Assembly (NCBI GenBank): GCA_000989305.1
Contig: LBTB01000002.1
Location: 40,411-104,410, forward strand
Source: Candidatus Shapirobacteria bacterium GW2011_GWF2_37_20
GTDB lineage: Bacteria; Patescibacteriota; Microgenomatia; UBA12405
Direction: 5' to 3'
Length of the DNA: 64,000 nt
Made by a program: the position numbers and the translations under genes
The notes under the pieces: generated by a model
What the model was told of the DNA's origin: nothing
What the model saw: only the letters and a program-made list of their open reading frames with translations
Database searches by the model: none
In this document: piece by piece, positions 9,748 to 32,627 of the stretch
Layout: each line of letters opens with the position of its first letter
Position numbering within the stretch: position 1 is the first letter of the stretch

Positions 9748-9750
9748 TAC

Positions 9751-16851: not shown

Positions 16852-18105
16852 ATGATTCGCAAATTAAAAAATCTTTTATGGCACCTCCCACGAGGAATTT
16901 TTTGGAATCTATACTTTTCTTTCCCTAGTCGAAAATTAACCCTTATTGGCGTTACTGGTACGGACGGAAAAACAACCTGTTGTACTCTAATTCAAAAGCT
17001 TCTGGAAAATAGCGGTATCAAATGTGGCATTATCAGTACCATTAGTTCTCCCGGCCTACACACCACCAGTCCTGATCCAAAAATTCTTCAAAAAATATTT
17101 GACGATTACCAAAAACAAGGCTATACCCATGTCGTTTGCGAAGTTACCTCACACGCCCTGGACCAACATCGCTTCTGGGGTTGTCATTTTAAAAGTAGTT
17201 TAATTACCAATATTTCCCATGAGCATCTTGATTATCACAAAAATATAGACGCCTACATTGCCGCAAAGGCAAAATTATTTTCTCAATCCGATCTGGCCAT
17301 TCTCAATCGCGACGATCCTCATTATTTGGCCTTAAAAAAGCTGGTTAAAGTTCCCGTGACTACCTACGGCATTAAAAATAAATCTGATTTTACGGCCAAA
17401 AACATAAAAATTACTTCAGACTCTCTAAGTTTTAATATCAACCAACAAAAATTTGTCAGCGACAGTAACTATGAATATCAAATTTACAACATTCTTGCCT
17501 GTTACTCCATCTTTATTAAACTTAAACTCGACCCAAAAATATTTTCCGACACCATTACCAATTTCCCCGAAACTAAAGGACGACGCGAAATTATTGAAAA
17601 CAATCTTCACCTAAAAACCATCGTTGACTTTGCCCACACTCCAAACGCACTTTTTGTTACTCTCTCATCACTACGTCGGACCACTCAAGGAAAACTAATA
17701 GTTATCTTTGGTGCCACCGGTGGCCGGGATAAAACAAAAAGACCAATAATGGGAAAAAATGTCTCCCAATTGGCTGATGTTGCCATAATTACCGCCGACG
17801 ATACTAGAAATGAAAAAATCGAAGATATTAATCAGCAAATAATTTCCGGAATAGATCCTGGCAAATCTATTTTAGGCAACCCTTTAAATCCAGTTATTAC
17901 CAAAGCCCGCCGCTTTCATTATTTCAATGTTCCCAATCGACAAGATGCCTTTAACTTGGCCGTCAAAATCGCCAAAGCCGGTGATACCATCGTTGCTTGC
18001 GGAAAAGGTCACGAGACCTCTATTCTACACGAGAGCACTGAATATCCCTGGTCAGAAGCCGAAGCCTTTAGAACTGCTTTTCGCCTAAAAAACCAAAATG
18101 TATAA
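16852..18105 (+). CDS. murE: UDP-N-acetylmuramoyl-tripeptide synthetase MurE (lacks N-terminal domain)
   Basis: P-loop LIGVTGTDGKTT (MurE-type GxTGTxGKTT). 417 aa with the central and C-terminal domains only. dcw position after ftsI. Confidence 0.7.
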   Translation: MIRKLKNLLWHLPRGIFWNLYFSFPSRKLTLIGVTGTDGKTTCCTLIQKLLENSGIKCGIISTISSPGLHTTSPDPKILQKIFDDYQKQGYTHVVCEVTSHALDQHRFWGCHFKSSLITNISHEHLDYHKNIDAYIAAKAKLFSQSDLAILNRDDPHYLALKKLVKVPVTTYGIKNKSDFTAKNIKITSDSLSFNINQQKFVSDSNYEYQIYNILACYSIFIKLKLDPKIFSDTITNFPETKGRREIIENNLHLKTIVDFAHTPNALFVTLSSLRRTTQGKLIVIFGATGGRDKTKRPIMGKNVSQLADVAIITADDTRNEKIEDINQQIISGIDPGKSILGNPLNPVITKARRFHYFNVPNRQDAFNLAVKIAKAGDTIVACGKGHETSILHESTEYPWSEAEAFRTAFRLKNQNV

Positions 18106-18697
18106 TCTAAAAAATAATTTGTCAATTGAAGAAAACTATTTGCAGGGTTATCTTCCCCAAAGAAATTCCCAAGACTCCTTTTATCAAGACGAAAACCATT
18201 CTTCTCGTTGTGATCTAAGCTTATTCCAATTATCTTCAGAGAACAGACGTATCATTAAAAAGACTGAAAATTTCACTTTTACCAAACTTCTTCTTTCAGA
18301 ATTTAACTACACCCCTCTTATTCAAAAACAAATTGTAGACTGGGTCAAAGAATTAGGATGGGATTTTCCAACCTCATCAATAAAAACCGTATTTACCAAT
18401 CATATTTTTAACTATCTATATATATGGTATGACCAAAACAAAGAAATTTGTGCCTACTCAATTTGTTATATTAATGAAAATTTTTCCCACATAGCCTATG
18501 TTTTTTATAATCCCAAATATACCCACAACGATTTGCCCATCCGACTTTCCCTGCAAGTAGTTACCGATAGTAACGACATGAAACTTAAATACTGTTATTT
18601 AGGCCGCTTTAACCCCAGTAATAAGCTTGGTTTTTATAAAAGAAACTTTCCGGGCTTCCAATATTTTACTCAGGGGACTTGGTTATCATATAATTAA
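18098..18697 (+). CDS. aminoacyl-tRNA--protein transferase-like protein (Ate/Bpt family C-terminal domain, GNAT/Fem-like fold)
   Basis: C-terminal YCYLGRFNPSNKLGFYKRNFPGFQYFTQGTW matches the Bpt/Ate1 signature YLGYWI..S.KM.YK..F.P.E.L..G.W. It lacks the N-terminal Cys-rich ATE_N motif. Confidence 0.45.
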   Translation: MYNLKNNLSIEENYLQGYLPQRNSQDSFYQDENHSSRCDLSLFQLSSENRRIIKKTENFTFTKLLLSEFNYTPLIQKQIVDWVKELGWDFPTSSIKTVFTNHIFNYLYIWYDQNKEICAYSICYINENFSHIAYVFYNPKYTHNDLPIRLSLQVVTDSNDMKLKYCYLGRFNPSNKLGFYKRNFPGFQYFTQGTWLSYN

Positions 18698-18702
18698 CAA
18701 AT

Positions 18703-19992
18703 ATGCATATTTACCTTGTTGGAATTGCCGGTTCAATGACCGCCCCCTTGGCCATTGCCCTTCAAAAACAAGGCCACAAGGTCACCGGATCAGACCAAGA
18801 AAAAACCTTTCCTCCCTACCGGCAACAGCTAAAAAAAGCCAATATTTTAATTAATCAGACACCAATAAATTCTGAGATTGATTTGGCCATTATCGGCTCA
18901 TCATATTTATTCTTTAAAAAAACCAGAGAAGATTTCGAAGCCGTCAAAGCCCAAAAGATCCCCTACATTTCCGCCACTGAGTATCTTTCTAAAAACCTAA
19001 TCAAAGAAAATTCCATATTAGTTGCCGGCTCATATGGTAAAACAACCATTAGTGCCGCCCTTGCCCATCTTCTAAGCCAAGCCAAACTTAATCCTTCCTA
19101 CATGTTTGGTGGCCAAAGTCTTAATCGACTTGACTCCCTACACTTCTCCGACTCAACCTGGTCCGTCCTTGAAGCCGACGAATCAATCAACGGCCTCGAC
19201 ACCAAAGCAAAATTTCTTTATTATCCCGTTAAATATCTAATATTGACTAGTGCCCTCTGGGAACATAAAGAAAGCTATCGAAGCGATGCAAAAAACTTTG
19301 CCGCATTTTTAGAATTAGTAAAAAAAATACCCTCCGACGGTCTTCTGATATATAACCAGAACGATACTTCCATTTTGCCACTTCTTCCCCATGTCAAATG
19401 CCAAAAAATTGCTTACCAAAAAACTTCATTAAGCACTTCCTTAATCGGCAAATACAACCAAGAAAATCTTGGTGCCGTTGAAACCTTAGCTCAAAATATA
19501 AATATCTCTCCCCAAATTATTAAAAAATCCCTTTCCTCTTTTAAGGGAGTTAAAAGGCGTTTAGAACTTTGCGCTCAAGCAGGGGGGATAATATTTATCG
19601 ATGATTTTGCCCAATCAGCCAATAGAATCAAGGCGGCCCTTGAAGTCATCAAAAATACTTATCCCAAATCTCATCTTAAAGTTTTTTATGAAGCTCACGC
19701 CTCTTTTATGCAATATCGTTCTGGTGTAAAACAGCTCTGCTCTGTTTTTAATCTAGCTGATGAAACCGTCATTTTCCAACTCAAATTTAATTCAAAAATC
19801 AGCACCAAAGACAGAATTGTGGCCAAAGATTTCTTAGAAATTATTCCCCAAAGCCTTTACCTGCCCCTGGCAAGTGATGTCATAAAACATTACCGCAAAA
19901 CCCTTAAAAAGGGTGATATTTTAATTCATTTTAGTTCTGGTGGAGTTGAAGGGCAAAAAACTTTTCGAAAAATTATTAATTTATACAAATAA
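18703..19992 (+). CDS. murC: Mur ligase, MurC/Mpl-like (UDP-N-acetylmuramate--L-alanine ligase)
   Basis: N-terminal HIYLVGIAGSMTAPLAIALQKQGHKVTGSD (MurC Rossmann/GSD motif) and P-loop VAGSYGKTT. Confidence 0.6.
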   Translation: MHIYLVGIAGSMTAPLAIALQKQGHKVTGSDQEKTFPPYRQQLKKANILINQTPINSEIDLAIIGSSYLFFKKTREDFEAVKAQKIPYISATEYLSKNLIKENSILVAGSYGKTTISAALAHLLSQAKLNPSYMFGGQSLNRLDSLHFSDSTWSVLEADESINGLDTKAKFLYYPVKYLILTSALWEHKESYRSDAKNFAAFLELVKKIPSDGLLIYNQNDTSILPLLPHVKCQKIAYQKTSLSTSLIGKYNQENLGAVETLAQNINISPQIIKKSLSSFKGVKRRLELCAQAGGIIFIDDFAQSANRIKAALEVIKNTYPKSHLKVFYEAHASFMQYRSGVKQLCSVFNLADETVIFQLKFNSKISTKDRIVAKDFLEIIPQSLYLPLASDVIKHYRKTLKKGDILIHFSSGGVEGQKTFRKIINLYK

Positions 19993-19998
19993 GAAATA

Positions 19999-21327
19999 AT
20001 GTCACGATACATAATCAACGGCGGTCAAAGCCTGAGCGGTGAAGTTTCTATCCGTGGTGCTAAAAATGCCGGCTATAAACAAATTATCGCCTCACTTCTC
20101 TCAGATAAGCCCAGTCACATCAACAACATTCCTCAAATTTCCGACGTTAAAATTACTCAAAGTATTGCCGAAAGTTTAGGCTCTCAAATAACCAGAACCG
20201 GTGAACACAGTTTAACTATTCATACTCCAAAATTTACCTCTTCAACAGTACCTCACGGTACCGGAGAAAAATCCCGAACCTCCTTTATTTTTGCCGCCCC
20301 GCTTTTAAGTCGAACTGGAATGGCCACCATTCCCACTCCTGGTGGAGACAAGCTCGGTGCCCGACCCTTGGATAGGCTTTTCGACTGCTTTTCCACCATG
20401 GGTATCAACACCGAACTCAAAGACGATCTAATGATTTTTAAAACCGATGGCATAAAAGCTACCCATTATGTTTTTAACAAACCCAGCCATACTGTCACTG
20501 AAGTTGTTGTTATGACCGCCGCCTTAGCCACCGGACAAAGTATTTTTGAAAATACTGCTCTTGAACCAGAAATTGACGATTTAATTTCCATGCTCAATTC
20601 TATGGGGGCCAAAATTCAGCGTTCTTCTCAAAATCCAAAAACTATCATCGTTGACGGAGTTCCTTCATTGTCTGGCACCAGCCATCAGGTAATTTCTGAT
20701 AGAAACGAAGCCATCACTTTTGCCTGTGCCGCATTGGCCACAAAAGGCTCTGTTAATATTCTCAGAACAGATCCCAAAATTATCAAAACCTTTTTAGATA
20801 CTGTTGAAAAAATGGGTGCCCAAATTGATAGGGGTAGTGATGAAGTTGCCGTCTCTTGGGTTAAACAATTAAAAGCGGTTGATATCGAAACCGGTCCCGA
20901 ACCAGGTTTTATGACCGACTGGCAGGCAATCTTTTCAGTTCTCTTAACTCAAGCCATCGGTGTTAGTAGTATCATCGAAAAAGTTTATCCTTCACGCTTT
21001 CAACACCTTCAATACCTGGAAAAAATGGGGGTTAAAACAGTATTGTTTAATCCTAAAATAGCCGACCCTTCCGCTTATTATGAATTTAACCCCGATACTG
21101 ATAAGCCCGAATATCTTCACGGCGTCAGAATATACGGACCAGTTAAGCTAAAACCTTCTCAATTTAGTATTAGTGATCTTAGGGCTGGTGCCTGTATAAC
21201 TTTGGCCGCCCTTACCGCTGAAGGTGAAAGTATTATCGATAATGTTGAATTTATTGAAAGAGGTTATGAAAAATTAGCCGAACGACTTTGCTCTTTGGGT
21301 GCTAATATAAAATATATCAAAACATGA
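19999..21327 (+). CDS. murA: UDP-N-acetylglucosamine 1-carboxyvinyltransferase MurA
   Basis: MSRYIINGGQSLSGEVSIRGAKNAG is the MurA N-terminal signature. EPSP-synthase fold, length 442 aa. Confidence 0.85.
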   Translation: MSRYIINGGQSLSGEVSIRGAKNAGYKQIIASLLSDKPSHINNIPQISDVKITQSIAESLGSQITRTGEHSLTIHTPKFTSSTVPHGTGEKSRTSFIFAAPLLSRTGMATIPTPGGDKLGARPLDRLFDCFSTMGINTELKDDLMIFKTDGIKATHYVFNKPSHTVTEVVVMTAALATGQSIFENTALEPEIDDLISMLNSMGAKIQRSSQNPKTIIVDGVPSLSGTSHQVISDRNEAITFACAALATKGSVNILRTDPKIIKTFLDTVEKMGAQIDRGSDEVAVSWVKQLKAVDIETGPEPGFMTDWQAIFSVLLTQAIGVSSIIEKVYPSRFQHLQYLEKMGVKTVLFNPKIADPSAYYEFNPDTDKPEYLHGVRIYGPVKLKPSQFSISDLRAGACITLAALTAEGESIIDNVEFIERGYEKLAERLCSLGANIKYIKT

Positions 21328-22358
21328 TTCACTTATATCTTGGCCTTCTATTATTCTCCTTTCTGGCTACCAGCATTTTAGTCGTACCCTACATTAATCT
21401 TCTTTACCGACTTAAATTTCAGCGTCAAAAACAGTCCACCCTTGATTTTCAAAATCAAAAGACCCCCATCTTTGACAAATTCCACTCATTAAAAAGTGGT
21501 ACACCCGTTGGCGGTGGACTTCTTATCATTGTCACTGTTGTCATTCTTTTTGCTTTCCTGTTTCCCATGTTAAAAATGTCCCGTCTCTTTATTTCCAGTA
21601 ACTACCACCTAATCAATGAGTTGATCGTTATCTTTTTTACCTTCATAAGTTTCGGTCTTCTTGGTCTATATGACGACATTCTAAAGTTTTTTAACTTTAA
21701 AAAGTCCGGATTTTTTGGCCTAAGAATGAAATACAAATTAATTCTTCAGTTACTCTTGGCCACCGTCATTTCCAGCCTAATCTATTTTCAGCTGGGAATC
21801 AATTTTATCTATCTTCCTTTTGTAGGTGCTGTCAGTCTTGGATTATTCTTTATTCCAATTTCCACCACAATCATTGTTGCTTTTGCCAACTTTTTTAATA
21901 TCACCGATGGTTTAGACGGCTTGGCCTGTGGCACTTTGATGATTTCTCTTTTCGCTTTCTGGATTCTAGCTGGCACCTCCCTTGATACCCCCATCTCCCT
22001 CTTTTTATCCCTCTGGATCGGTTCTCTTATTGCCTTTCTTTACTTTAATGTCTACCCGGCTCGTATCTGGCTGGGAGACGTTGGTTCATTATCTTTTGGG
22101 GCCACCTTTGCTGTCATCGCTCTGCTTCTAGGAAAGGTTGTTCCTCTTTTTATTGTCGGGGCTCCTTTTATTATCGAAGGTATGACCAGTGCCATTCAAA
22201 TCTTTAGTAAAATCTATCTTCACAAAAAAATATTTCCCGCCGCTCCAATCCACCTCACTCTTCAAAAAAATGGCTGGGAAGAACCCAAAATTGTTTTTAG
22301 AGCTTGGCTAGCTGCTATTATTTTAGCTATTTTTGGACTATGGCTGGGACTAAATTAA
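21324..22358 (+). CDS. mraY: phospho-N-acetylmuramoyl-pentapeptide transferase MraY
   Basis: Polytopic membrane protein with NFFNITDGLDGLA (MraY/WecA DDxxD-type signature). Confidence 0.85.
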   Translation: MIHLYLGLLLFSFLATSILVVPYINLLYRLKFQRQKQSTLDFQNQKTPIFDKFHSLKSGTPVGGGLLIIVTVVILFAFLFPMLKMSRLFISSNYHLINELIVIFFTFISFGLLGLYDDILKFFNFKKSGFFGLRMKYKLILQLLLATVISSLIYFQLGINFIYLPFVGAVSLGLFFIPISTTIIVAFANFFNITDGLDGLACGTLMISLFAFWILAGTSLDTPISLFLSLWIGSLIAFLYFNVYPARIWLGDVGSLSFGATFAVIALLLGKVVPLFIVGAPFIIEGMTSAIQIFSKIYLHKKIFPAAPIHLTLQKNGWEEPKIVFRAWLAAIILAIFGLWLGLN

Positions 22359-22879
22359 GTGAATTACGTCAGGAAATTTTAAAATATATTGGCATCCCGT
22401 ACCATACCAATATCCCTAAGGTAATTTCTACTGAAAATGTTTTACTTGGTAAGGGCAATGCCAGGGAGATTGCCCTAAAAACAATTGAATTAGCCAATAA
22501 AAATAACCTAAAAATTCTAAATTTAAGTCCCCAACAAATCTATAATTTTCAAAAAAAGAATAAAATTGGCATTGATTGCTCCGGTCTGGCCTGTCATCTT
22601 CTTAATTTTTACTTTAATACCAAACTAAATGTTCGGCGCACCTCCGCCGACATGCTTAGCTCCGCCCCCTTATCAAAACAAATTGACATTTCCGACACCC
22701 AAACCGCCGACCTAATCCGACAAAAAGATGGTCACCACCTTCTCTTTGTTATCGAAAAAATTGGTGACAAAGTTGTCTATGTTGATTCTTCACGAAAGGG
22801 CAGGGGAGTACGCTATGGCGAATTCGACATCACTGACAAAAACTTCAAACACAACGGAGTTTTCAGATTAAATAGATAG
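22340..22879 (+). CDS. NlpC/P60-family (papain-like) cell-wall hydrolase, putative
   Basis: GIDCSGLACHLLNFYFNTKLNVRRTSADM (catalytic Cys context like DCSGLV...PRTS) and GHHLLFVIEKIGDKVVYVDSSRKG (His context like HVGIYIG..IHAS). The longer track ORF starts at 22304 inside mraY. Confidence 0.5.
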   Translation: MAGTKLSELRQEILKYIGIPYHTNIPKVISTENVLLGKGNAREIALKTIELANKNNLKILNLSPQQIYNFQKKNKIGIDCSGLACHLLNFYFNTKLNVRRTSADMLSSAPLSKQIDISDTQTADLIRQKDGHHLLFVIEKIGDKVVYVDSSRKGRGVRYGEFDITDKNFKHNGVFRLNR

Positions 22880-22881
22880 GT

Positions 22882-23190
22882 TTATTTCTTTTCCCAGCGA
22901 TCCTTGTCTCTTTTTTTGTATTTATCCATTATTCTGTCAAAATGTTTGTCCAAATCAATATTAAGTGAATTAGCCAAGCATGCCAGAGTGTAGATGATGT
23001 CTGCCATTTCATCACCCAATTCCTGGGTTTCTTCAGATGGCTTTTTCTTTTTTGAACCAAAAAGATGATTTAACTCTCTTGCCGTCTCACCAACTTCTTC
23101 AACTAATCGAGCTAAAATCTCTAAAGGTTTAAAATAACCAACCTTGTACTGAGAAATCCATTCATCAACTTCTTTTTGAATCCTTTTCAT
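22882..23190 (-). CDS. MazG-like nucleoside triphosphate pyrophosphohydrolase (small all-alpha NTP-PPase)
   Basis: LVEEVGETARELNH...ELGDEMADIIYTLACLAN is the MazG/HisE-type EExxE...D motif pair. Start ATG overlaps the stop of the upstream LysW-like ORF by 1 nt. Confidence 0.7.
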   Translation of the reverse strand: MKRIQKEVDEWISQYKVGYFKPLEILARLVEEVGETARELNHLFGSKKKKPSEETQELGDEMADIIYTLACLANSLNIDLDKHFDRIMDKYKKRDKDRWEKK

Positions 23191-23354
23191 TATTTTTCCT
23201 CAATCAACTCCCGGTACCGAAGAGGGGTGGTTGAGATAATTTCCACTTCAGTTCCACATTCCTGACATTCTAAAATATCTCCAAGCATTGGGCTTTCACC
23301 TTTAATTTCCGCCTGGCAATCAGGGCAAAGAACTTTATTATTAGTATCTGGCAT
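23190..23354 (-). CDS. LysW-like zinc-ribbon protein (amino-group carrier protein family), 54 aa; not in the ORF track
   Basis: Translation MPDTNNKVLCPDCQAEIKGESPMLGDILECQECGTEVEIISTTPLRYRELIEEK. It has the CxxC-16-CxxC spacing and the ELGE[LI]VxCxxCGxElEV[VI]...PL.L...EE pattern of LysW (Thermus LysW: CPECGAELRLENPELGELVVCEDCGAELEVVGLDPLRLEPAPEE...). The C-terminus is -EEK rather than the acidic -E of canonical LysW. TAATG coupling to the mazG-like gene. Confidence 0.55.
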   Translation of the reverse strand: MPDTNNKVLCPDCQAEIKGESPMLGDILECQECGTEVEIISTTPLRYRELIEEK

Positions 23355-23388: not shown

Positions 23389-24186
23389 ATGACACCACTA
23401 AGTAAAATCGATAATCTATATTTTAAACGTGAAGATTTAAATCCCACCGGCTCCGCCAAAGACAGAGCTCTACCCTTCCAGATTCAAAACTTACTAAATA
23501 ACGGCTTTAAATCCGCCGTTATTTCTTCAACCGGCAATGCCGCCATTTCCGCCACCTATTATTGTCAAAAAGAAAATATTCCCCTAACCATTTTTGTTTC
23601 TCCAAAAATCAATATCAACAAATTATCCCTTATAAAAGGCAATATCATCAAGTCTCTCAAACCAATCAGCGATGCCATCAAGTTTTCTAAAGCCAACCAT
23701 GCCTATCTTTTACGACAATCAACTGACCCCTCAGCTCAAGTAGGCTATGCTGAAATAGCCAAAGAAATATTAATTCAATTACCACAAATTACCAGCCTTT
23801 TTATTCCCGTTGGTAGTGGTACTACCTTACTGGGGATTGCCAAAGTCTTACCCAACAACGTTAAAATCTTTGCCGCCCAACCAGCCAGTAATCCAACTAT
23901 CTCTAGTGTTTTTGATCAGGATTACACACCAGAAACTCAAACCATTACCGATGCTCTTAGCGTAAAATATTTACCTCTTAAAACCGAAGTGATAAATGCA
24001 ATTAAATCACGCTATTCTTTTGGTATTGTTGTCAAAAATACTGACGCTATCAAATATTTAGATTTTGTTAAACAATTTGAAACCTCACCAGAGTCAGCCC
24101 TGACTCTAGCCGCCTACCATCAAATAAAAAATAAACCCGAAGTGGGGGATTATCCTGTTATTCTTTTAACCGGCACAAAACGCTAA
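23389..24186 (+). CDS. PLP-dependent enzyme, fold type II (tryptophan-synthase-beta superfamily; threonine-synthase/cysteine-synthase-like), unusually short (265 aa)
   Basis: FKREDLNPTGSAKDRA is the fold-II PLP-lysine motif (xNPTGSFKDR). The phosphate-binding Gly loop is PVGSGTT. Confidence 0.6.
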   Translation: MTPLSKIDNLYFKREDLNPTGSAKDRALPFQIQNLLNNGFKSAVISSTGNAAISATYYCQKENIPLTIFVSPKININKLSLIKGNIIKSLKPISDAIKFSKANHAYLLRQSTDPSAQVGYAEIAKEILIQLPQITSLFIPVGSGTTLLGIAKVLPNNVKIFAAQPASNPTISSVFDQDYTPETQTITDALSVKYLPLKTEVINAIKSRYSFGIVVKNTDAIKYLDFVKQFETSPESALTLAAYHQIKNKPEVGDYPVILLTGTKR

Positions 24187-25277
24187 TGGGCAATCTAGAG
24201 ACTTTATTAAAAAATTCCGGCTACAACTTTTTCTTTTTAGTTGTCGATAAATTCTTAGACATTAGTTTACCCCAACTTCCAAATTTTCAATCTCTGTCTC
24301 AAAAAAATCTGAAAATCAAAAATAGTGGTTTTCTTTTATCGCAGGGAAACATTCAAAATACAATTAAATCTGCCCCAAATCCGGCCATCATTCCTTTTAA
24401 GCCCTCAGCAAAAATTGAAAAAATATGTCAAAAAAATTCCTGGACCTTAGTTGCCAATCCCGCCAAAATTAATCGACTTTTAGAGAACAAAATCAAATTT
24501 TTTGAAACCTGTAACATAAATGGATTACCCATAGTTCCTGGAATTGTTGCCGAATTTAATCAAAATTCTTTTCAAAAAGCCCAAGAAAAATTTGGCAACT
24601 CTTTAGTTGTTCAAACCCATTTTGGTTGGGCAGGAAATAGTACCCATTACTTTGATAATTACGAAACAGCAAAAGCCGTTATCCCTAAAAACACTCTTGC
24701 CAAATTCTCTCCCTATTTAAAAGGATATTCCCTTCTTAATAATTGCTGTCTCACCCGCCATGGACTACTTCAAAGCCCTCCCGCCCTTCAGTACACCGGA
24801 CTACCCAACCTAACCCAAAACCCCTTTGCCACCGTTGGCCGTCAGTGGCCATCATTTGCTCCACTCGAAATCCAGGAACAGATTTACCAAATTACTGAAA
24901 ATTTTTCAAACAAAATACTTAAGCCCCTGAATTATCGTGGTTTTTTTGGTTTAGATTTTATTGTCTCTGACAATAAGGTCTACCTTCTTGAATGCAACCC
25001 GAGACTTACCGCTTCCTTCGCCTTTTATACTCAAATCGAAGTAAACAACAACCTCACCCCACTCTTTTATTACCACTTAGCTGAATTTATTAATCAAGAT
25101 TATTCAATTGATTTAAAGTTAGAACAACAACGCTTTCACCATCAAAATATTATCGGCTCTGAGATAACTCAAAGAAACAGCGACGGCCTCATCGTTAAAA
25201 AATATCACGATTTTAAGGTCTTCTCTACAAAAACAGATCCTGTCATTATTAACCAGGAAATTTTGTCAAAACTTTAG
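24186..25277 (+). CDS. ATP-grasp domain protein (carboxylate--amine ligase family), subfamily unassigned
   Basis: KIKFFETCNINGLPIVPG (central domain), LVVQTHFGWAGNS (ATP-binding strand-like) and DFIVSDNKVYLLECNPRLTASF (Mg-binding E/N motif of ATP-grasp). TAATG coupling with the upstream PLP-enzyme gene, and 2 nt from ftsW. Confidence 0.5.
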   Translation: MGNLETLLKNSGYNFFFLVVDKFLDISLPQLPNFQSLSQKNLKIKNSGFLLSQGNIQNTIKSAPNPAIIPFKPSAKIEKICQKNSWTLVANPAKINRLLENKIKFFETCNINGLPIVPGIVAEFNQNSFQKAQEKFGNSLVVQTHFGWAGNSTHYFDNYETAKAVIPKNTLAKFSPYLKGYSLLNNCCLTRHGLLQSPPALQYTGLPNLTQNPFATVGRQWPSFAPLEIQEQIYQITENFSNKILKPLNYRGFFGLDFIVSDNKVYLLECNPRLTASFAFYTQIEVNNNLTPLFYYHLAEFINQDYSIDLKLEQQRFHHQNIIGSEITQRNSDGLIVKKYHDFKVFSTKTDPVIINQEILSKL

Positions 25278-25279
25278 AA

Positions 25280-26410
25280 ATGAAAATTTCCCCCCTGCTT
25301 ACTTACTCCACCCTTCTCTCTTTTATCGGTTTGTTATTTATTTCTTCCTCCTCCCTTTTTGAAGCCGAAAAAACTATTGGCGACCCATATTTTTTCCTTA
25401 AAAAACAAATGCTTTGGCTTGTTGTTGGTTTAATTAGCCTCTTTATTACCTCTAAAATTAAACTAGATACTTTTGTCAACAATTCTTTTCGCCTCTATTT
25501 ATTCTCTGCTATTTTATTACTCCTGGTATTAATTCCTGGTATCGGTGCACAAGTTCTTGGCGCCAGACGTCAAATTGATTTAGGCTTTTTTAATTTTCAG
25601 CCCTCTGAACTATTTAAGTTTGCCTCAGTAATTTTCTTTTCCTTTCTTTTTTCTTTAAAGGAAAAAAGAAATTTAAAAAACTTAACCCTATATCTCGGAC
25701 CACCTTTAATTTTAATCATTCTTGAGCCAAACCTCAGTACTACTGTCATGATTGCCGCTATTGTCATTTCTATCTACTATCTTTCCGGTGCTGAAATTAT
25801 AAGCCTTTTCTCGGCCGGTTTTGTCATCACCCTTCTAAGTTTCTTATTAATTCTAGTCTCACCCTATCGTCTGGCCCGCGTTAAAACTCTTCTCAACCAG
25901 CAAAGTAATCAAGACCTGAGTTACCACAGCGAACAAATAGTACTTTCCTTAGCCTCTGGCGGGTGGTCAGGTAAAGGCTTTGCCAATTCCGACCATAAAT
26001 ATCAATTTATCCCTAAAATAAGCACCGATTCGATCCTTGCTATTGTTGGTGAAGAAACTGGCTTTGTCGGCTTAACTTTAATTAGCTATCTATTTTTACT
26101 TTTAATTTCCCGATTAATTCATATCTCTCAAGTGGCCACCGATACTTATGAAAAACTTCTCGTCAGTGGTATTGCCTGTTGGATAGCCTATCAAGGTTTA
26201 ATTAATTTTGCCGCCATTGTTGCCTTAATCCCGCTGACCGGAATTCCTTTTCCCTTCATTGCCTATGGAGGCTCCTCCCTAATCACCCTATTTTGCGCCT
26301 TGGGACTAGCTATAAATATAGAAAATAAATATTCTAAATTGCTATACTCAAAGGATGACCGAAACCAGAAAGATAATCATCACCGGCACTCATATCACCC
26401 CCGCCATTGA
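25280..26410 (+). CDS. ftsW: SEDS-family peptidoglycan glycosyltransferase FtsW
   Basis: 10-TM protein with GIPFPFIAYGGSSLITL (SEDS signature). dcw position before murG. Confidence 0.75.
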   Translation: MKISPLLTYSTLLSFIGLLFISSSSLFEAEKTIGDPYFFLKKQMLWLVVGLISLFITSKIKLDTFVNNSFRLYLFSAILLLLVLIPGIGAQVLGARRQIDLGFFNFQPSELFKFASVIFFSFLFSLKEKRNLKNLTLYLGPPLILIILEPNLSTTVMIAAIVISIYYLSGAEIISLFSAGFVITLLSFLLILVSPYRLARVKTLLNQQSNQDLSYHSEQIVLSLASGGWSGKGFANSDHKYQFIPKISTDSILAIVGEETGFVGLTLISYLFLLLISRLIHISQVATDTYEKLLVSGIACWIAYQGLINFAAIVALIPLTGIPFPFIAYGGSSLITLFCALGLAINIENKYSKLLYSKDDRNQKDNHHRHSYHPRH

Positions 26411-27434
26411 GTTGATCCACCAACTTCAAAGTGACCGCGATATCAACTGGGAAATATTCTACATAGGCAGACGTTTCAACTCCAGTGTCCAGAGAGAAGC
26501 TTCGATAGAATCAAAAATAATTCCTCAAAATAACGTAAAATTTTACGGCATCTTGTGTGGCAAATACGACCGTCGTTGGCTACCAAACACCATTTCTGGT
26601 CTGCCTCAAATGTTATCGGGCTTCAAAAGCGCCCACCAAATCCTCAAAAAAATAAAACCTCATTTAGTCGTCTCTTTTGGCGGATATGTTTCAGTTCCGG
26701 TTATTATTTCTGCCTGGCTCCAAAATCTTCCCTCAATTACTCACGAGCAAACCCACACTCTAAGTCTGTCAACCAAAATCAACGCTTTGTTTTGTCGTCA
26801 CATCGCCCTATCCTTCCCCGTTACCAAATCATCCGACAAATATCTGGTTACCGGCAATCTTTTGAGACGGGAAATTTTTAATTTTCATTCCCAATATTTT
26901 GAAAAGCAAAAATTTGACCTAAAAAAGTTTCCTCTGATTTATCTTACCGCCGGCAATCAGGGTTCACATCGTCTAAATTTAGTCTTAAAAAAATTATTAC
27001 CTTCTCTTTGCAAGAGATTTACCATTATTCACCAAAGCGGATCAAAAGATTTTAATAGATATAAAAAACTCTCTTTAAAATTTCCTAATTATTTGGTCAA
27101 AAACTATATTGATTCCGTCGACATTGGTTGGATTTTTCATCATTCAAAACTAATCGTCAGTCGCGCCGGCGCCAACACCACCCAAGAAATTGCCGTTTTG
27201 GGTCTTAATTCCGTCATCATCCCCCTCTTAATAAGCCAACAAAATGAACAATTTAAAAACGCTCTTTGGTTACAAGAAAAACTACCTAAAAATACCATAA
27301 TCATTAAAGAATCGGAACTTACGGCAAAATCACTTGGAGACTCTATCAACATTCTTGCTTCAAAAAAGAAAGCACCCTCTTCTGTTTTACCCTCTCCAAA
27401 TCTTAAACTATTAAAACTAATCAAAAAGCTCTAA
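26355..27434 (+). CDS. murG: undecaprenyldiphospho-muramoylpentapeptide beta-N-acetylglucosaminyltransferase MurG (GT28)
   Basis: IIITGTHITPAIELI (variant of the GGTGGH G-loop) and LIVSRAGANTTQEIAVLGLNSVIIPL...NEQFKNA (MurG C-terminal signature). Confidence 0.75.
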   Translation: MTETRKIIITGTHITPAIELIHQLQSDRDINWEIFYIGRRFNSSVQREASIESKIIPQNNVKFYGILCGKYDRRWLPNTISGLPQMLSGFKSAHQILKKIKPHLVVSFGGYVSVPVIISAWLQNLPSITHEQTHTLSLSTKINALFCRHIALSFPVTKSSDKYLVTGNLLRREIFNFHSQYFEKQKFDLKKFPLIYLTAGNQGSHRLNLVLKKLLPSLCKRFTIIHQSGSKDFNRYKKLSLKFPNYLVKNYIDSVDIGWIFHHSKLIVSRAGANTTQEIAVLGLNSVIIPLLISQQNEQFKNALWLQEKLPKNTIIIKESELTAKSLGDSINILASKKKAPSSVLPSPNLKLLKLIKKL

Positions 27435-27443
27435 AATTAAAAC

Positions 27444-28697
27444 ATGCAACATTTTAAAACCATTAATTGTCTTGACATCGGCACTTCGAAAATAACCTCC
27501 ATTATCGGTCAGTATCCTGAAAACGAAACCAAGATAAATGTCGTTGGTGTTGCCTCTGTTCCGGCAGTCGGTTTTAAAAAAGGTCAAATAATCAATCTGG
27601 AACAAGCCAGCAAAACTATTACCGAATGTATCGAATCTTCCGAAAGAATGGCTGGTTTTCAAATTAATCACGCCTTTATTTCCCTCACCGCTCCCCACTT
27701 TGAATCATTTAATTCCAAGGGTGTAACTGCTATTTCCGGAGCTAGCGGAGAAATATCAAGTGTAGATATTGATCGGGCCATTGAGGCCGCCAAGGCAATC
27801 TCACTGCCAGCTAATAAAGAAATTGTTCATGTAATTCCCCGTCTTTTTACCGTTGATGGTCAGGAAGGCGTCATCGACCCCATTGGAATGAGTGGTGTTC
27901 GACTAGAGGTTGAAACTCATTTAATTTTAGCCTCAACCCCGGCTTTAAAGAATCTCAACAAGTGCCTCGAAGAAATTGGTATAAAGGTCGATGCTCTTGC
28001 CTATTCCGGTTTAACTTCCGCCAAAGCTTGTTTAAGCGAAACAGAAACAGAACTTGGAGTAGCCCTTGTCGATATTGGAGGTAGCAACACCACCATTACC
28101 ATTTTCCAGGAGTCCTCACCAGTCTTTTCCGGAGTAATTCCTCTTGGTGCCAACAACATTACCAACGATTTGGCCATAGGTCTTAGACTCCCGCTCCAAG
28201 AATCAGAAAAAATTAAAATCAAACTGAAAGCTTATGCCGACAAGAAAGGCTTTGAAGACGAAATTGAATTAACTCATCTTGGCATCCTAAGTGAGGACAA
28301 GAAAAAAATCTCATTTTCCACCACTGTTAACGGCATTATCAAAGCCAGACTTGAAGAAATTTTTGGATTTATCTTTGACCAAATAGAAGACAATGGTTTT
28401 AAAAATTCTATTCCCGCCGGAATTGTTCTAACCGGTGGCGGCTCTCAAACAATTTTGGCTAAAGAAGTCTGCGCTGATGTTATCCCTTTGCCAGTCAGAA
28501 TAGCCGATCCTCCACGTCTCGGAGGCTTGGTTGACGATATAACCAACCCCGCCTTTTCCAGCACCATCGGTACTATTTTATATTTTCAAACTCATAAAAT
28601 TAATCCAAAAAACAACTCTTCAAACAAAAAAATGAAGGTTTCTTTTGATGGAATATTCGGTCGTCTTAAAGGTTTTATCGAACCTCTTTTACCTTAA
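27444..28697 (+). CDS. ftsA: cell division protein FtsA
   Basis: CLDIGTSKITSIIG (actin-like phosphate-1 motif), VDIGGSNTTITIF (phosphate-2) and VLTGGGSQT (adenosine motif). Confidence 0.8.
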   Translation: MQHFKTINCLDIGTSKITSIIGQYPENETKINVVGVASVPAVGFKKGQIINLEQASKTITECIESSERMAGFQINHAFISLTAPHFESFNSKGVTAISGASGEISSVDIDRAIEAAKAISLPANKEIVHVIPRLFTVDGQEGVIDPIGMSGVRLEVETHLILASTPALKNLNKCLEEIGIKVDALAYSGLTSAKACLSETETELGVALVDIGGSNTTITIFQESSPVFSGVIPLGANNITNDLAIGLRLPLQESEKIKIKLKAYADKKGFEDEIELTHLGILSEDKKKISFSTTVNGIIKARLEEIFGFIFDQIEDNGFKNSIPAGIVLTGGGSQTILAKEVCADVIPLPVRIADPPRLGGLVDDITNPAFSSTIGTILYFQTHKINPKNNSSNKKMKVSFDGIFGRLKGFIEPLLP

Positions 28698-28698
28698 C

Positions 28699-29847
28699 AT
28701 GGGCTTAATTAAAACACTTACAGGTCAATTCGCAAAAATAAAAGTCATTGGTGTCGGTGGCGGCGGTAACAATGCCGTAAACTCCATGATTTCTCAAGAA
28801 GAAATCAAGGGTGTTGATTTTATTGCTGTCAATACTGATTCTCAGGTTCTTTTAAACTCCCTGGCTCCGATCAAAATTCAAATTGGAGAAAAAATTACCA
28901 AGGGTCTTGGGGCCGGTGGTGACCCAAATGTTGGCCAACAAGCAGCTGAAGAATCCCGGGAACGAATTAAGGAAGTGCTTGAAGGTACTGACATGCTTTT
29001 TATCACCGGCGGTATGGGTGGTGGTACTTGTACTGGTGCCGCTCCCATCATTGCTGAAATTGCCAAAAAAGAACTAAATATCCTGACAATTGCCGTCGTC
29101 ACCAAACCCTTCTTGTTCGAAGGAACCCGGCGCATGAGCAAAGCCGAGGAAGGCTTGTCCCGTCTTCGACAAAATGTCGACACCCTGATTGTAATCCCAA
29201 ACCAGCGGGTTATGGAGGTAGTTAACTCTCAGGCTACTCTGCTTGAAGCCTTCAAAATTGCTGATTCTGTTTTAACCAAAGGTACCAAAGCCATTGCCGA
29301 TTTAATCACCACTTCCGGCCTGATCAACCTTGATTTTGCTGATATCAAATCTGTCATGAGCAATGCCGGTTCTGCCCTCATGGGAGTCGGGGAAGCTGAA
29401 GGAAAAAATAAGGCCCAAGACGCCGTTGAAACTGCCATTGATTCTCCGCTCGTTGAAGTTAATATTGACGGGGCCAGGGGAGTCCTTATCAATATCACCG
29501 GAGGTCCCGACATTACTATGGCCGAAATTGAAGAATCTGCCAAAACTATCACCTCTCACGTTGCTCCCGACGCTAATGTAATTTTTGGAGCTTCGATTGA
29601 CCCGGAACTCAAAGATAAAGTTAAAATCACCATCATTGCTACCGGTTTCGATCCAAGTAAAAATCTAACCCATTCTTCCTACAAAAAACCAGTTACCATG
29701 CAAAAACCCTTAATCGATGACGATTCTGAACCTCAAAAAGAACTTGATCCTAAACTTCAAAATTTGATGGCCGATCAGGAAATTCCTGCCGGAGTTGAAA
29801 TCGAAGACGAATTCGACATCCCTGCCTTTTTACGAAAAAATAGTTAA
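28699..29847 (+). CDS. ftsZ: cell division GTPase FtsZ
   Basis: IKVIGVGGGGNNAVNSM and GGMGGGTCTGAAPIIAEIAK (tubulin signature; Cys at 29029-29031 replaces the usual Gly of GGGTGTG), then T7-loop NIDFADIK. ATG at 28699 lies 1 nt after the ftsA stop. Confidence 0.9.
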   Translation: MGLIKTLTGQFAKIKVIGVGGGGNNAVNSMISQEEIKGVDFIAVNTDSQVLLNSLAPIKIQIGEKITKGLGAGGDPNVGQQAAEESRERIKEVLEGTDMLFITGGMGGGTCTGAAPIIAEIAKKELNILTIAVVTKPFLFEGTRRMSKAEEGLSRLRQNVDTLIVIPNQRVMEVVNSQATLLEAFKIADSVLTKGTKAIADLITTSGLINLDFADIKSVMSNAGSALMGVGEAEGKNKAQDAVETAIDSPLVEVNIDGARGVLINITGGPDITMAEIEESAKTITSHVAPDANVIFGASIDPELKDKVKITIIATGFDPSKNLTHSSYKKPVTMQKPLIDDDSEPQKELDPKLQNLMADQEIPAGVEIEDEFDIPAFLRKNS

Positions 29848-29855
29848 AATACACT

Positions 29856-32627
29856 ATGCCGTATTTTAAAGAACTTCCCAATACCCCAGACTTTCCTCAG
29901 CTGGAAAAAGATATTCTCACCTGGTGGCAGGATAACAATCTTGTCCAAAAATATCTTCACAAAAATGATGATTCAAAAGAAATCTTTTCTTTTATTGACG
30001 GACCTATCACCGCCAACGCCCCCATGGGAGTTCACCATGCTCGGGGAAGGACTTTAAAAGACGTCTTTCAAAGATTTAAAAACGCTCAAGGCTTTTCCCA
30101 AAGGTTTCAAAATGGTTTTGATTGTCAGGGACTTTGGGTCGAAGTTGAAGTCGAAAAAGAAAATGGTTTTAATTCTAAAAAAGATATTCAAAATTTTGGT
30201 TTAAAAAACTTTACTAAAGCTTGCCTGGCTCGGGTTGACAAATTCAGTAAAATTCAAACCGAACAATCAATTCGTCTAGGAATGTTTATGGATTGGGAAA
30301 ACTCATATTACACCAATTCCCAGACCAATAATCTCTATATCTGGCACTTTCTAAAAACTGTTTGGCAAAAAGGTTGGCTTGTTCAAAGAAAAAGTGCCAC
30401 TACTTGGTGTCCCCGCTGTGAAACCGGCCTCTCTCAACATGAGCAAGCCGATGGATATCAAATGGATACCGACACTTCTGTTTTTCTAAAATTCAAATTA
30501 AGCGACAGGAAAAATGAATATTTTCTTGCTTGGACTACAACGCCCTGGACTCTCGCCGCCAATGTTTTATTGGCTATTAATACTAAATTTGAATATGTCA
30601 AAGCCAAATATGAAAATCAAATTTTGTATTTAGCCAAAGAATCTGCCGACAGACTGGGCATAACTGATTACAAGAACATAGACCCTAAAACTTTACTAAA
30701 TCTTAAATACGAATCATTGTTTGATATTCCCGCCCAAAAGGGGATTAAGCACTATATTACTCAATGGGACCAGGTCAATCCTTCCGAAGGTACTGGAGTT
30801 GTCCATATCGCCCCCGGCTGTGGTCAGGAAGATTTTGAATTAGGTAAAAAACTAAATTCCGATATGTTATCGCCCTTAACCGAAAATGGTCACTTTATTG
30901 AAAACTATGGTTTTCTAACCGGAAAATATGCCCACGGAGTCAATGATGAAGTTATTAAATACTTAGAATCCAATAACTCTTTATTTAAAACTGAAGCCGT
31001 CACTCATCGCTACCCCCATTGCTGGCGCTGTAAAACAAAGTGTCTCTTCCGTTTGGAAAATTCCTGGTATATTAATTCCGATGAAATTCGCCCTCTCCTA
31101 AAGGAAGCTGCAAAAAAAGTTGACTGGCATCCAAAATATACCGCTCGCCGGATGCAAAATTGGCTTGATTCTATGGAAGATTGGATGATTAGTCGCAAAC
31201 GTTTCTACGGCCTCGCCCTTCCTTTTTATCAATGTAGTTGTGGTGAATTAACTGTCATTGGTTCTAAAGAAGAACTAAAGGAAAAAGCTATTAATCCTAA
31301 ATTAATCGACAAACTACCTTCATTTCATCGACCCTGGATTGATGAAATAGAAATAAAATGCCCAAAATGCGGCAAAAATGTCAAACGTATTCCTGACGTC
31401 GGCGACGTTTGGCTTGATGCTGGAGTTGTTCCTTTTTCAACCCTAAAATACCTCGATGATAAAACCTATTGGCAAAAGTGGTTCCCCGCCCAAATGGTTC
31501 TGGAAATGACCGAACAAATACGTTTATGGTTTTATTCCATGCTTTACTTTAGTGTTACTTTTGAGGGTACCGCGCCTTACAAAAGTGTTGTTACTTACTC
31601 CGAAGTTCGTGATCAAAAAGGAGAGCGCATGAGCAAGACCAAGAAAAATGGCATTCCCTTTGACGAAGCTGTTGATAAAATGGGGGCCGACCCCATGCGT
31701 TGGCTTTATTGCCAACAAAAAGCTCACGCCAGTGTTAACTTTGGCTACAATATCGCCGACCAGGTAAAGCGTGATTTCCTTTTAATTCTTTGGAATTCCT
31801 ATCGTTTTTTCACCCAACACGCCAATCTTGAAAACTGGCAACCTCCAAAAAACTCAAGCCCAAGCGAGACCAAACATCCTATGGATAAATGGCTACTGTC
31901 ACGTCTGCACCACACCATCGAGCTCTCAACAAAAAACCTTGAAAAATATAACACCTCAAAAGTCACTGAAAGTATCGAAAAATTTGTCAACGATCTTTCC
32001 ACTTGGTACATTCGACGTTCCCGTGACCGAAATGATAATTTCGAACTATTGTCTCTTGTCTTTGACAACTTATTTAAACTAATGGCTCCCGTTACCCCTT
32101 TCTTAAGTGAAACTTTATATCAAAATCTAAATTCTCAAAAATCAGTACATTTGGAAAAATGGCCACTAAATGACAACTCCTTCATTGATGAAAAATTAGA
32201 AAAAGACATGGACCTCGTTAGAACACTTTGTCAACTAGCCCACGCCCAAAGACAAGTTGCCAATATTAAAATTCGTCAGCCATTATCAAATCTTGATCTT
32301 CACTGCCCCACAGAATTGAGCCCGGAACTTTTAGCTATTATTGGCGAAGAAGTAAACATCAAAACAGTTAAGATTACAAAAATCACTGACACTGTTAAAG
32401 TAATTTTGGAAACAACAATTACTCCCGAACTTGCCGCTGAAGGTGAATATCGAGATCTGATCAGAAACATCCAGGTTCTCAGAAAAAATCAGGGCTTACT
32501 CGTCCAAGATAGAATTAAAATACGCGCCCCCTCATGGCCCAAAGAATTCGAAAAACAAATTTTGGAAAAAACCCTTGCCGATTCTTTGGAAATAGGGGAC
32601 ATTCTCAGTCTTGAAAAAAGCTCATGA
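29856..32627 (+). CDS. ileS: isoleucine--tRNA ligase (class I, reduced 923-aa form)
   Basis: HIGH-like PMGVHHARG and KMSKS-like ERMSKTKKNG. IleRS-like blocks FGLKNFTKACLARVDKFSKIQTEQSIRLGMFMDWENSYYT and TWCPRCETGLSQHE. ValRS cannot be fully excluded without alignment. Confidence 0.65.
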   Translation: MPYFKELPNTPDFPQLEKDILTWWQDNNLVQKYLHKNDDSKEIFSFIDGPITANAPMGVHHARGRTLKDVFQRFKNAQGFSQRFQNGFDCQGLWVEVEVEKENGFNSKKDIQNFGLKNFTKACLARVDKFSKIQTEQSIRLGMFMDWENSYYTNSQTNNLYIWHFLKTVWQKGWLVQRKSATTWCPRCETGLSQHEQADGYQMDTDTSVFLKFKLSDRKNEYFLAWTTTPWTLAANVLLAINTKFEYVKAKYENQILYLAKESADRLGITDYKNIDPKTLLNLKYESLFDIPAQKGIKHYITQWDQVNPSEGTGVVHIAPGCGQEDFELGKKLNSDMLSPLTENGHFIENYGFLTGKYAHGVNDEVIKYLESNNSLFKTEAVTHRYPHCWRCKTKCLFRLENSWYINSDEIRPLLKEAAKKVDWHPKYTARRMQNWLDSMEDWMISRKRFYGLALPFYQCSCGELTVIGSKEELKEKAINPKLIDKLPSFHRPWIDEIEIKCPKCGKNVKRIPDVGDVWLDAGVVPFSTLKYLDDKTYWQKWFPAQMVLEMTEQIRLWFYSMLYFSVTFEGTAPYKSVVTYSEVRDQKGERMSKTKKNGIPFDEAVDKMGADPMRWLYCQQKAHASVNFGYNIADQVKRDFLLILWNSYRFFTQHANLENWQPPKNSSPSETKHPMDKWLLSRLHHTIELSTKNLEKYNTSKVTESIEKFVNDLSTWYIRRSRDRNDNFELLSLVFDNLFKLMAPVTPFLSETLYQNLNSQKSVHLEKWPLNDNSFIDEKLEKDMDLVRTLCQLAHAQRQVANIKIRQPLSNLDLHCPTELSPELLAIIGEEVNIKTVKITKITDTVKVILETTITPELAAEGEYRDLIRNIQVLRKNQGLLVQDRIKIRAPSWPKEFEKQILEKTLADSLEIGDILSLEKSS

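Follow-up and report, generated by a model that had tools for sequence, protein, structure and literature searches.

The window analyzed here, a stretch of 64,000 nucleotides from Candidatus Shapirobacteria bacterium GW2011_GWF2_37_20 (contig LBTB01000002.1, positions 40,411 to 104,410), carries on its minus strand an open reading frame (ORF) at 23190-23354 that is a genuine gene for a 54-residue zinc-ribbon protein of the LysW fold, hereafter called the ribbon. Ribbons ending in Glu-Glu-Lys (-EEK) are a distinct and widespread subfamily of this fold in Patescibacteria and in candidate division CSSED10-310. The ribbon is the obligatory genomic partner of three proteins, namely a ThrC-like pyridoxal phosphate (PLP) enzyme of the PALP family, an ATP-grasp ligase and a cytoplasmic NlpC/P60-like cysteine peptidase (P60). 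The module thus formed sits in or adjoins the gene clusters for peptidoglycan synthesis (division and cell wall, dcw), and in many lineages MurD is encoded in the same operon. In our estimate there is about an even chance that the ribbon would serve as a carrier or adaptor in a peptidoglycan-precursor module.

A first-pass annotation of the window had described the ORF as an unannotated minus-strand frame of 54 codons with the cysteine spacing CxxC-16-CxxC, overlapping by one nucleotide the start of a mazG-like gene. The translation of 23190..23354 (-) is MPDTNNKVLCPDCQAEIKGESPMLGDILECQECGTEVEIISTTPLRYRELIEEK, comprising 54 codons with an ATG start and a TAA stop, and the cysteines lie at C10xxC13 and C30xxC33 (CPDC...CQEC) with a spacer of 16 residues. 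Base 23190 is common to the TAA stop of the ribbon and the ATG of the 102-residue MazG-domain ORF, in agreement with the described overlap. Public records do contain the gene, however: GenBank entry KKQ31704.1, from a Candidatus Shapirobacteria bacterium, is exactly this protein and bears the name 'Alpha-aminoadipate carrier protein LysW'. A degenerate DNA pattern consisting of the ribbon core and EEK-stop occurs once in the window, compared with zero occurrences expected from 100 shuffles. In eight orthologous coding sequences of 54 codons, changes at third codon positions dominate (653, compared with 316 at first and 226 at second positions), indicating that the ORF is under purifying selection. 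Conservation in related genomes, which had been left to be checked, is extensive: the ORF has kept both its start and its stop codon in over 150 loci from phylum-level lineages.

The claimed likeness to LysW is supported by profile matches and by the predicted structure. The ribbon scores 41.5 bits with the Pfam profile of the LysW globular domain (PF21344, Zn_ribbon_LysW; gathering score 27), and a profile made from 25 relatives matches the solved structures 3wwl (E-value 3e-8) and 5k2m (6e-8), the LysW proteins of Thermus and Thermococcus, in the globular part only. The AlphaFold2 (AF2) model shows a small beta-ribbon at residues 8-50 (pLDDT 78, last block 62), and the six best PDB matches of this model in Foldseek are all LysW chains, with a TM-score of 0.72, a root mean square deviation of 1.7 Å and 40% identity. 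The tail is of another kind. In the ribbon, 21 residues follow the second CxxC (...RELIEEK) compared with 26 in relatives of the EDWGE type; it lacks the EDWGE tail, is five residues shorter and ends in Lys.

The non-acidic end, remarked on in the first-pass annotation, proved to be a conserved feature and no accident of this genome. Among 24 close relatives (61-96% identity) the C-terminus is L[IV]EEK, with one exception ending in EEI; in the alignment of close relatives (n = 25) E52 and E53 are invariant and K54 is found in 24 of 25. When 1.84 billion cluster representatives were searched exhaustively with HMMER, 576 of them matched, and among the best 150 of these about 46-50 end in -E-E-K (mostly [LIV]EEEK), while 27 have an EDWGE-like tail. 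When 44 EEK-type proteins of 33-66% identity were aligned, the four Cys and E36 were invariant and E52, E53 and K54 were at least 90% conserved, with a fixed tail length: the C-terminus is [ILVE]-E-E-K-COOH, always 10 residues past a conserved Pro. Tail variants (ETK, EQK, VEK, VQK, LHK and EGK) all retain the Lys, which makes it the best conserved residue of the tail. The most frequent tails in the 115 genome loci described below are EEEK (59), IEEK (28) and VEEK (20). Judged by the globular core alone, the nearest neighbor of an EEK-type protein is again EEK-type for 97 of 111, and NCBIfam has no specific model for the -EEK ribbon. Further proteins returned by the search contain two or three LysW-like ribbons in tandem and have a basic C-terminus rich in Lys and Arg (P0166, P0171, P0175, P0189, P0200, P0207 and others); they are families separate from both the EDWGE and the EEK types.

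Two of the three partner genes in the window lie divergently from the ribbon gene. The first, at 23389..24186 (+) and separated from it by 34 nt, encodes the ThrC-like fold-type II PLP enzyme of 265 residues (PF00291, E-value 4.6e-37; hereafter PALP). Its catalytic, Schiff-base-forming Lys is kept as K24 in the motif NPTGSAKDR, and this Lys is invariant in the family. The match of PALP to threonine synthase models is below threshold, and the family profile finds ThrC (6cgq) first (7e-27), followed by threonine/serine dehydratases, serine racemase (2e-21) and aspartate racemase. In addition, ThrC hallmark motifs have been lost, with STGNT changed to SS[ST]GNA and GNAGN to SG[ST], so that classical threonine synthase activity is unlikely. 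The database name 'threonine synthase' is probably a misannotation.

The ATP-grasp ligase of 363 residues is encoded at 24186..25277 (+), its start overlapping the stop of PALP. It matches PF02655 (E-value 2e-8) and is PRK06524-like (99.6 bits), while the rimK_fam model gives an E-value of only 0.065. The AF2 model (pLDDT 94.9) resembles biotin carboxylase (BC), PurK and PurT best in Foldseek, with a TM-score of about 0.6. Taken together, these matches indicate that the enzyme is not of the RimK/LysX type. A profile of the family also matches gamma-glutamyl ligases, weakly and over about 50 residues (BesA 8yi6, E-value 5.9e-6; MfnD, 2.8e-5), while its match to tubulin tyrosine ligase (TTL) is at noise level (about 0.05). 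The window protein is identical to US68_C0009G0050 of Shapirobacteria GW2011_GWE1_38.

The gene of the NlpC/P60-like cysteine peptidase, a candidate for release or trimming, is located at 22304..22879 (+) and converges on the MazG and ribbon genes; its true start is probably the ATG at 22340 (MAGTKL...). The window P60 is recognized weakly by PF00877 (E-value 0.012) and clearly by our own P60 hidden Markov model (HMM; 1e-81), and orthologs in other lineages reach 1e-18 with PF00877. The catalytic DCSG motif is present in 81 of 82 orthologs. A hydrophobic N-terminal or transmembrane segment was found in none of the 82, which indicates that the P60 proteins are cytoplasmic. Between P60 and the ribbon lies the 102-residue MazG-domain nucleoside triphosphate pyrophosphohydrolase (22882..23190 (-); PF03819, E-value 2e-14), translationally coupled to the ribbon. 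The first-pass annotation had laid weight on this coupling. MazG adjoins the ribbon in the window and in two further loci (L006 and L007), a subset of the Shapirobacteria-like loci, and is absent beside it in L001, L002-L005, L008 and all distant lineages examined. Since the adjacency is not conserved, functional coupling was rejected, the emphasis on it was misplaced, and MazG is a lineage-specific passenger outside the core of the module.

How constant the association is was assessed in both directions. The degenerate DNA pattern was searched for in contigs representing one genome per species and returned at least 119 stretches, 118 of which are true ribbons and one of which, in a Robertmurraya genome, is a chance match. 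HMMs made from the first loci were then applied to the 8-kb pieces around 115 ribbons, identified with an ORF regular expression among the matches listed. PALP and/or ATP-grasp were encoded in the same piece for 101 of the 115, both of them for 87, P60 for 82 and a true MurD (E-value below 1e-40) for 24; most of the loci without module genes are cut by the edge of the piece. In the reverse direction, 39 metagenome loci were chosen by their ATP-grasp gene alone. In all 33 of these that extend upstream of PALP, a ribbon was found that ends in EEEK, VEEK, IEEK or EKEK. The only other recurrent neighbors of the module are ordinary dcw genes.

According to the record titles among the matches listed, the module occurs in Shapirobacteria, Gottesmanbacteria, Woesebacteria, Microgenomates, Dojkabacteria, Saccharibacteria, Parcubacteria, the 'Patescibacteria group' and candidate division CSSED10-310. 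Many metagenome bins (L017, L023, L025, L027, L040-L043, L081 and others) are titled 'uncultured Gammaproteobacteria'. These labels look wrong: the third-party annotation (TPA) bins so titled carry Shapirobacteria- or Gottesmanbacteria-like dcw clusters with the module, and L081 and L008 are one contig.

The arrangement of genes in the window recurs in other Shapirobacteria loci, and the same gene set surrounds distant ribbons with 37-43% identity to that of the window (including L009, L010 and L011). In L013 the genes form a co-linear operon ribbon-P60-MurD-PALP-ATP-grasp with no other cell-wall genes near, and stand-alone operons of this composition outside dcw clusters are found also in L016, L021 and L052. 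In L015, the ribbon is flanked by MurB-MurC-MurG-FtsW-ATP-grasp-PALP in one direction and by MurD-P60-amidohydrolase-...-MraY in the opposite one; the amidohydrolase, beside the P60 and MurD of the module, is an Amidohydro_3 protein of 524 residues (9347-10921) matching PRK09061, a family named D-glutamate deacylase in CDD. Gene fusions are seen in the CSSED10-310-type loci. L016 consists of the ribbon, a fusion of a D-glutamate-cyclase-like domain with P60 (348-2048), a MurD-PALP fusion of 831 residues (2086-4581) and ATP-grasp, and L021 has a further such P60 fusion (2241-4064); the N-terminal domain on P60 is PF14336 (E-values 3.5e-57 and 7.8e-55 in L016 and L021). In L045 (5018-5623) and eight other loci of the Saccharibacteria type (including L031, L065, L075, L101, L109, L129 and L135), and in this lineage only, an ORF of about 200 residues is inserted between PALP and ATP-grasp, which gives weak matches to methyltransferase domains (E-value about 1e-3).

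In the window, the module fills the interval between mraY (21324-22358 (+)) and ftsW (25280-26410 (+)), the usual site of murD. The Mur ligase that accompanies the module in other lineages is MurD, with 206-257 bits in TIGR01087 (cutoff 212); it is present in module loci of the Gottesmanbacteria type, the CSSED10-310 type and others, and is a frequent though not universal component of the module.

The first-pass annotation had offered two options for a ribbon ending in Lys, an altered carrier chemistry or a role other than that of a carrier. We lean towards altered carrier chemistry centered on the terminal Lys, because this Lys is the best conserved residue of the tail. As LysW does, the ribbon would hand a covalently bound intermediate from one enzyme to another, with the C-terminal Lys as the handle, and we hypothesize that the most plausible role of the module is the supply of D-Glu. 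In a first step, the ATP-grasp ligase would activate an acidic amino acid at its side-chain carboxylate (most plausibly L-Glu, at the gamma-carboxylate) and join it by an amide bond to the epsilon-amine of K54. ATP-grasp ligases that acylate the epsilon-amine of Lys include PylC and the D-Asp ligase Aslfm, and gamma-glutamyl amides are made by MfnD and BesA. In a second step, the ThrC-like PLP enzyme would invert the alpha-carbon of the tethered Glu from L to D. Such an enzyme could act here because the tethered Glu would keep its alpha-amine and alpha-carboxylate and would be roughly isosteric with O-phosphohomoserine. Finally, P60, the usual substrates of whose family are gamma-D-Glu-Lys or gamma-D-Glu-diaminopimelate (DAP) bonds, would set free the D-residue, or else the product of MurD, and so restore the carrier. 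Overall, D-Glu would be provided for position 2 of the stem peptide in one direction only and at the expense of ATP.

This scheme would account for the conserved Lys, the presence of an amidase, the embedding with MurD, the MurD-PALP fusion and the fusion of a D-glutamate-cyclase-like domain with P60. It would also fit PALP, as a PLP enzyme needs a free alpha-amine, which is blocked in a linkage of the LysW style. The stand-alone operons that include MurD and the amidohydrolase beside the P60 of L015 speak for the link to MurD and D-Glu as well. In its full form, with an epsilon-tethered, gamma-linked L-Glu, inversion by PALP and release by P60 before or after use by MurD, we regard the scheme as possible but, step for step, rather unlikely.

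Several observations weigh against a carrier of this kind. We infer the chemical steps from gene context. PALP is ThrC-like and is no known glutamate racemase, and its motifs fit racemase or beta/gamma-replacement chemistry alike. P60 enzymes normally cut gamma-D-Glu from the alpha-amine of Lys or DAP, not from an epsilon-amine. The free tail of the ribbon is about four residues long in the AF2 model, shorter than that of LysW, so the enzymes would have to dock the globular domain very near the active site. With regard to MurD, the dcw cluster of the window encodes no MurD-type ligase, and annotation of all 64 kb, a length that cannot show absence from the genome, revealed no murD, murF, murB, ddl, murI or alr. 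As the clusters of the window and of other Shapirobacteria are without MurD, the link to MurD depends on the lineage, and it could partly reflect the usual order mraY-murD-ftsW. Not every ribbon has kept its partners, either. One group, with the C-terminal region ...ELEYKGKDK.GK..LE[IV]IEEEK, is found in L053 (3405-3584), L089 (4096-4272) and L115 (7359-7568). No module gene lies within about 4 kb of the ribbon in L053 and L089, PALP and ATP-grasp are 2.4 kb away in L115, and the ribbon and its partners have become separated in this lineage. Lastly, going by a title cited in PMC11974145, at least one Saccharibacterium is reported to have an active glutamate racemase.

Known systems resemble the module in part. 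With LysW/ArgW of Thermus thermophilus, Sulfolobus and Thermococcus (3wwl, 3vpb, 5k2m) the ribbon shares the zinc-ribbon fold and the core motif, and in both cases a small acidic protein is encoded beside an ATP-grasp ligase and a hydrolase able to release a product. The differences concern the tail (-EDWGE in LysW/ArgW, -EEK and five residues shorter here), the partner ligase (RimK/LysX compared with a BC/PurK-like enzyme), the other partners (LysZ, LysY, LysJ and LysK compared with the ThrC-like PLP enzyme, NlpC/P60 and MurD) and the pathway, which is lysine or arginine biosynthesis for LysW/ArgW and peptidoglycan synthesis for the -EEK ribbon. Seen in this light, the ribbon would be a carrier of the LysW type whose handle, partner enzymes and pathway all differ from those of LysW.

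The proposed chemistry has parallels of its own. In Aslfm (with its racemase Racfm), PylC, MfnD and BesA, an amine attacks a carboxylate that has been activated to the acyl phosphate, as is proposed for the ATP-grasp ligase. Asl serves the cell wall with a racemase as its partner, comparable to the pairing of ATP-grasp with PALP, and the gamma-glutamyl tether made by BesA is a handle for later enzymes. None of these ligases, however, uses a protein as acceptor as the ribbon is proposed to be, and the similarity of BesA and MfnD to our ATP-grasp ligase is marginal. The P60 of the module resembles the cytoplasmic NlpC/P60 gamma-D-glutamyl-L-diamino-acid endopeptidases of the YkfC type, which act in murein peptide recycling, in being signal-less and having DCSG, and in some lineages it has a D-Glu-related fusion partner. 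YkfC-type enzymes are encoded with a peptide transporter or an epimerase, whereas the partner of the module P60 is a protein ending in Glu-Lys, and the weak PF00877 match of the window P60 sets it apart from them. The MurD2/MurL pair of Xanthomonas, encoded next to murD, is an ATP-dependent one-way route from L- to D-Glu (PMC8788868). It resembles the proposed scheme as a non-canonical, ATP-consuming entry of D-Glu into the stem peptide with a murD-type ligase adjacent, but it has no carrier protein, PLP enzyme, ATP-grasp ligase or P60.

The alternative that survives best, to which we give an appreciable minority share of our confidence, is that PALP and ATP-grasp are soluble precursor enzymes and that the ribbon never carries a substrate but acts non-covalently, whether as scaffold, as regulatory subunit or by mimicking the stem peptide. 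The two enzymes could be a racemase and a D-amino-acid ligase, in the manner of Asl and Rac, which together attach D-Asp to Lys3, or could take the place of Ddl, while the ribbon would gate or inhibit them by imitating a stem peptide with its ...Glu-Lys-COOH end. The location of the enzymes within dcw clusters, the match of the PALP profile to serine and aspartate racemases, an ATP-grasp ligase that is not LysX-like and the very short tail of the ribbon are all compatible with this view. In addition, ...E-K-COOH resembles the gamma-D-Glu-L-Lys end of the tripeptide, which is bound by P60 enzymes. On the other hand, a covalent handle would be expected to show what is seen here, namely a strict 1:1 co-occurrence whichever gene the search starts from and a C-terminal residue that hardly varies and keeps a fixed distance. 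Besides, the characterized homologs of the fold are all covalent carriers, and the association with MurD, rather than with MurF or MurE, speaks against a role as Ddl or in cross-bridge formation.

It is distinctly less probable, in our view, that the ribbon is a capped amino-group carrier, in which the encoded Lys is a removable cap like the C-terminal Tyr of alpha-tubulin. P60 would then remove the Lys and expose a Glu, as at the end of LysW, ATP-grasp would load an amino acid through its alpha-amine, as LysX does, or add the Lys back, and the PLP enzyme would work either on the amino acid while it is still free or on a side chain. The model for this is the tyrosination cycle of tubulin (TTL and vasohibin, acting on an ...EEY end), where an acidic stretch with one encoded non-acidic residue likewise goes together with an ATP-grasp ligase and a papain-fold peptidase. 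The amidohydrolase in L015, which resembles N-acyl-D-glutamate deacylases, also speaks for this reading. However, the tubulin cycle is eukaryotic and has no PLP enzyme or Mur ligase, and with the similarity to TTL at noise level it is an analogy only; the fold of the ATP-grasp ligase is nearer to BC/PurK than to RimK, LysX or TTL. Moreover, the Lys is better conserved than the Glu residues that precede it, which is odd for a cap, and a substrate linked by its alpha-amine cannot form a PLP aldimine, so that PALP would be left without a carrier-bound substrate.

The name given to the ribbon in GenBank implies an ordinary LysW/ArgW of lysine biosynthesis through alpha-aminoadipate or of arginine biosynthesis. 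The Pfam domain match and the database names favor this, yet we consider it very improbable. Canonical LysW binds its substrate to the C-terminal Glu of the EDWGE tail, and its loader is the RimK-type LysX. The specific LysW models fell short with the ribbon (TIGR01206, 43 bits at a cutoff of 53.2; NF041070, 24 bits at a cutoff of 75), so that of the profiles consulted for the first-pass proposal PF21344 recognizes the protein and TIGR01206 does not. Genes for LysX(RimK), LysZ, LysY, LysJ and LysK were found in none of the neighborhoods of about 170 loci, and AA_kinase, Semialdhyde_dh, Aminotran_3 and M20 were absent from the conserved neighbor clusters of 128 loci and from the Pfam-annotated loci. 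As a control, an EDWGE-type relative from the same search (P0376, from Anaerolineae) lies in a canonical lysine operon with homocitrate synthase, homoaconitase, homoisocitrate dehydrogenase, LysX (LysX_preATP_grasp and RimK), LysY, LysZ and LysJ, indicating that the type of tail predicts the gene context. With the EDWGE tail missing, TIGR01206 below its cutoff and neither RimK/LysX nor lysine-pathway neighbors, the canonical role was rejected, the earlier claim that canonical LysW chemistry does not apply holds for tail and ligase alike, and the name 'LysW' misleads and is probably a misannotation.

Three further ideas were rejected. A poly-Glu tail of the type made by RimK on ribosomal protein S6, which the first-pass annotation had also put forward, is at variance with the C-terminal Lys and with a partner ligase outside the RimK family, and no RimK-family gene is adjacent. 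The ribbon is not an N-terminal zinc ribbon that has become detached from a threonine synthase of the archaeal type, as it is encoded on the opposite strand and gives specific LysW matches, and longer PALP proteins elsewhere keep the ThrC-type N-terminus (GIW[RK]Y) in addition to a ribbon. Attachment to the wall in the manner of Braun's lipoprotein was dismissed for a cytoplasmic zinc protein with no signal peptide. That the region is non-coding and the ORF a product of chance has a negligible probability, since its length of only 54 codons and a promoter/terminator scan around it that gave nothing above chance level are outweighed by the codon-change pattern of purifying selection and a confident, specific fold prediction, and refuted by the conserved start and stop in phylum-level lineages.

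The remainder of the dcw cluster in the window, all on the plus strand, has two Mur ligases, MurE and a MurC-like protein. The murE gene (16852-18105; TIGR01085, 321 bits, cutoff 257) overlaps by 8 nt a gene for an ATE_C/Fem-like protein of 199 residues (18098-18697), which resembles arginyl-tRNA-protein transferases (Fem or L/F-transferase type). This gene lies between murE and the murC-like gene (18703-19992; TIGR01082, 195 bits, below the cutoff of 335) and recurs in 22 related loci; its product may be a tRNA-dependent enzyme that adds a branch to the stem peptide. The genes murA (19999-21327) and mraY were assigned by gene order and by the Pfam families in the syntenic locus L001, and ftsW, murG (26355-27434), ftsA (27444-28697) and ftsZ (28645-29847) by the Pfam families of the syntenic loci L001 and L006. 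A second gene of the FtsW/RodA family is found at 32624-33622 (+), and a gene of the Glu/Leu/Phe/Val dehydrogenase family at 36029-37363 (+) could be a source of L-Glu. At the beginning of the window, 197-11706 (+) is a large cluster of glycosyltransferase, Wzy-like, sugar-transferase and DUF4012 genes.

To our knowledge, the LysW-type carriers described so far serve only lysine and arginine biosynthesis and a small number of secondary-metabolite pathways, and all of them use a C-terminal Glu as the handle and a RimK-type loader. In open-access papers and preprints we came upon neither an -EEK LysW-like protein nor the module, although a description may exist elsewhere. The mechanism with a Lys-epsilon tether and D-Glu, if true, would be close to categorically new, a new protein-carrier chemistry and a lineage-specific target. 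It would also be a third route to D-Glu, carrier-mediated and ATP-driven, widespread in Patescibacteria, and in Shapirobacteria it might even stand in for a missing MurD step.

In much of the Candidate Phyla Radiation, the -EEK module is found among the essential genes of the cell wall. Under the names 'lysine biosynthesis protein LysW' and 'threonine synthase' its genes lead to reduced genomes being wrongly credited with amino-acid biosynthesis. Its conservation suggests a carrier-protein step in the synthesis of cell-wall precursors by ultra-small bacteria, and should D-Glu or some other building block of the stem peptide be supplied or installed by it, the module would fill a gap in the peptidoglycan synthesis of these ultra-small symbionts.

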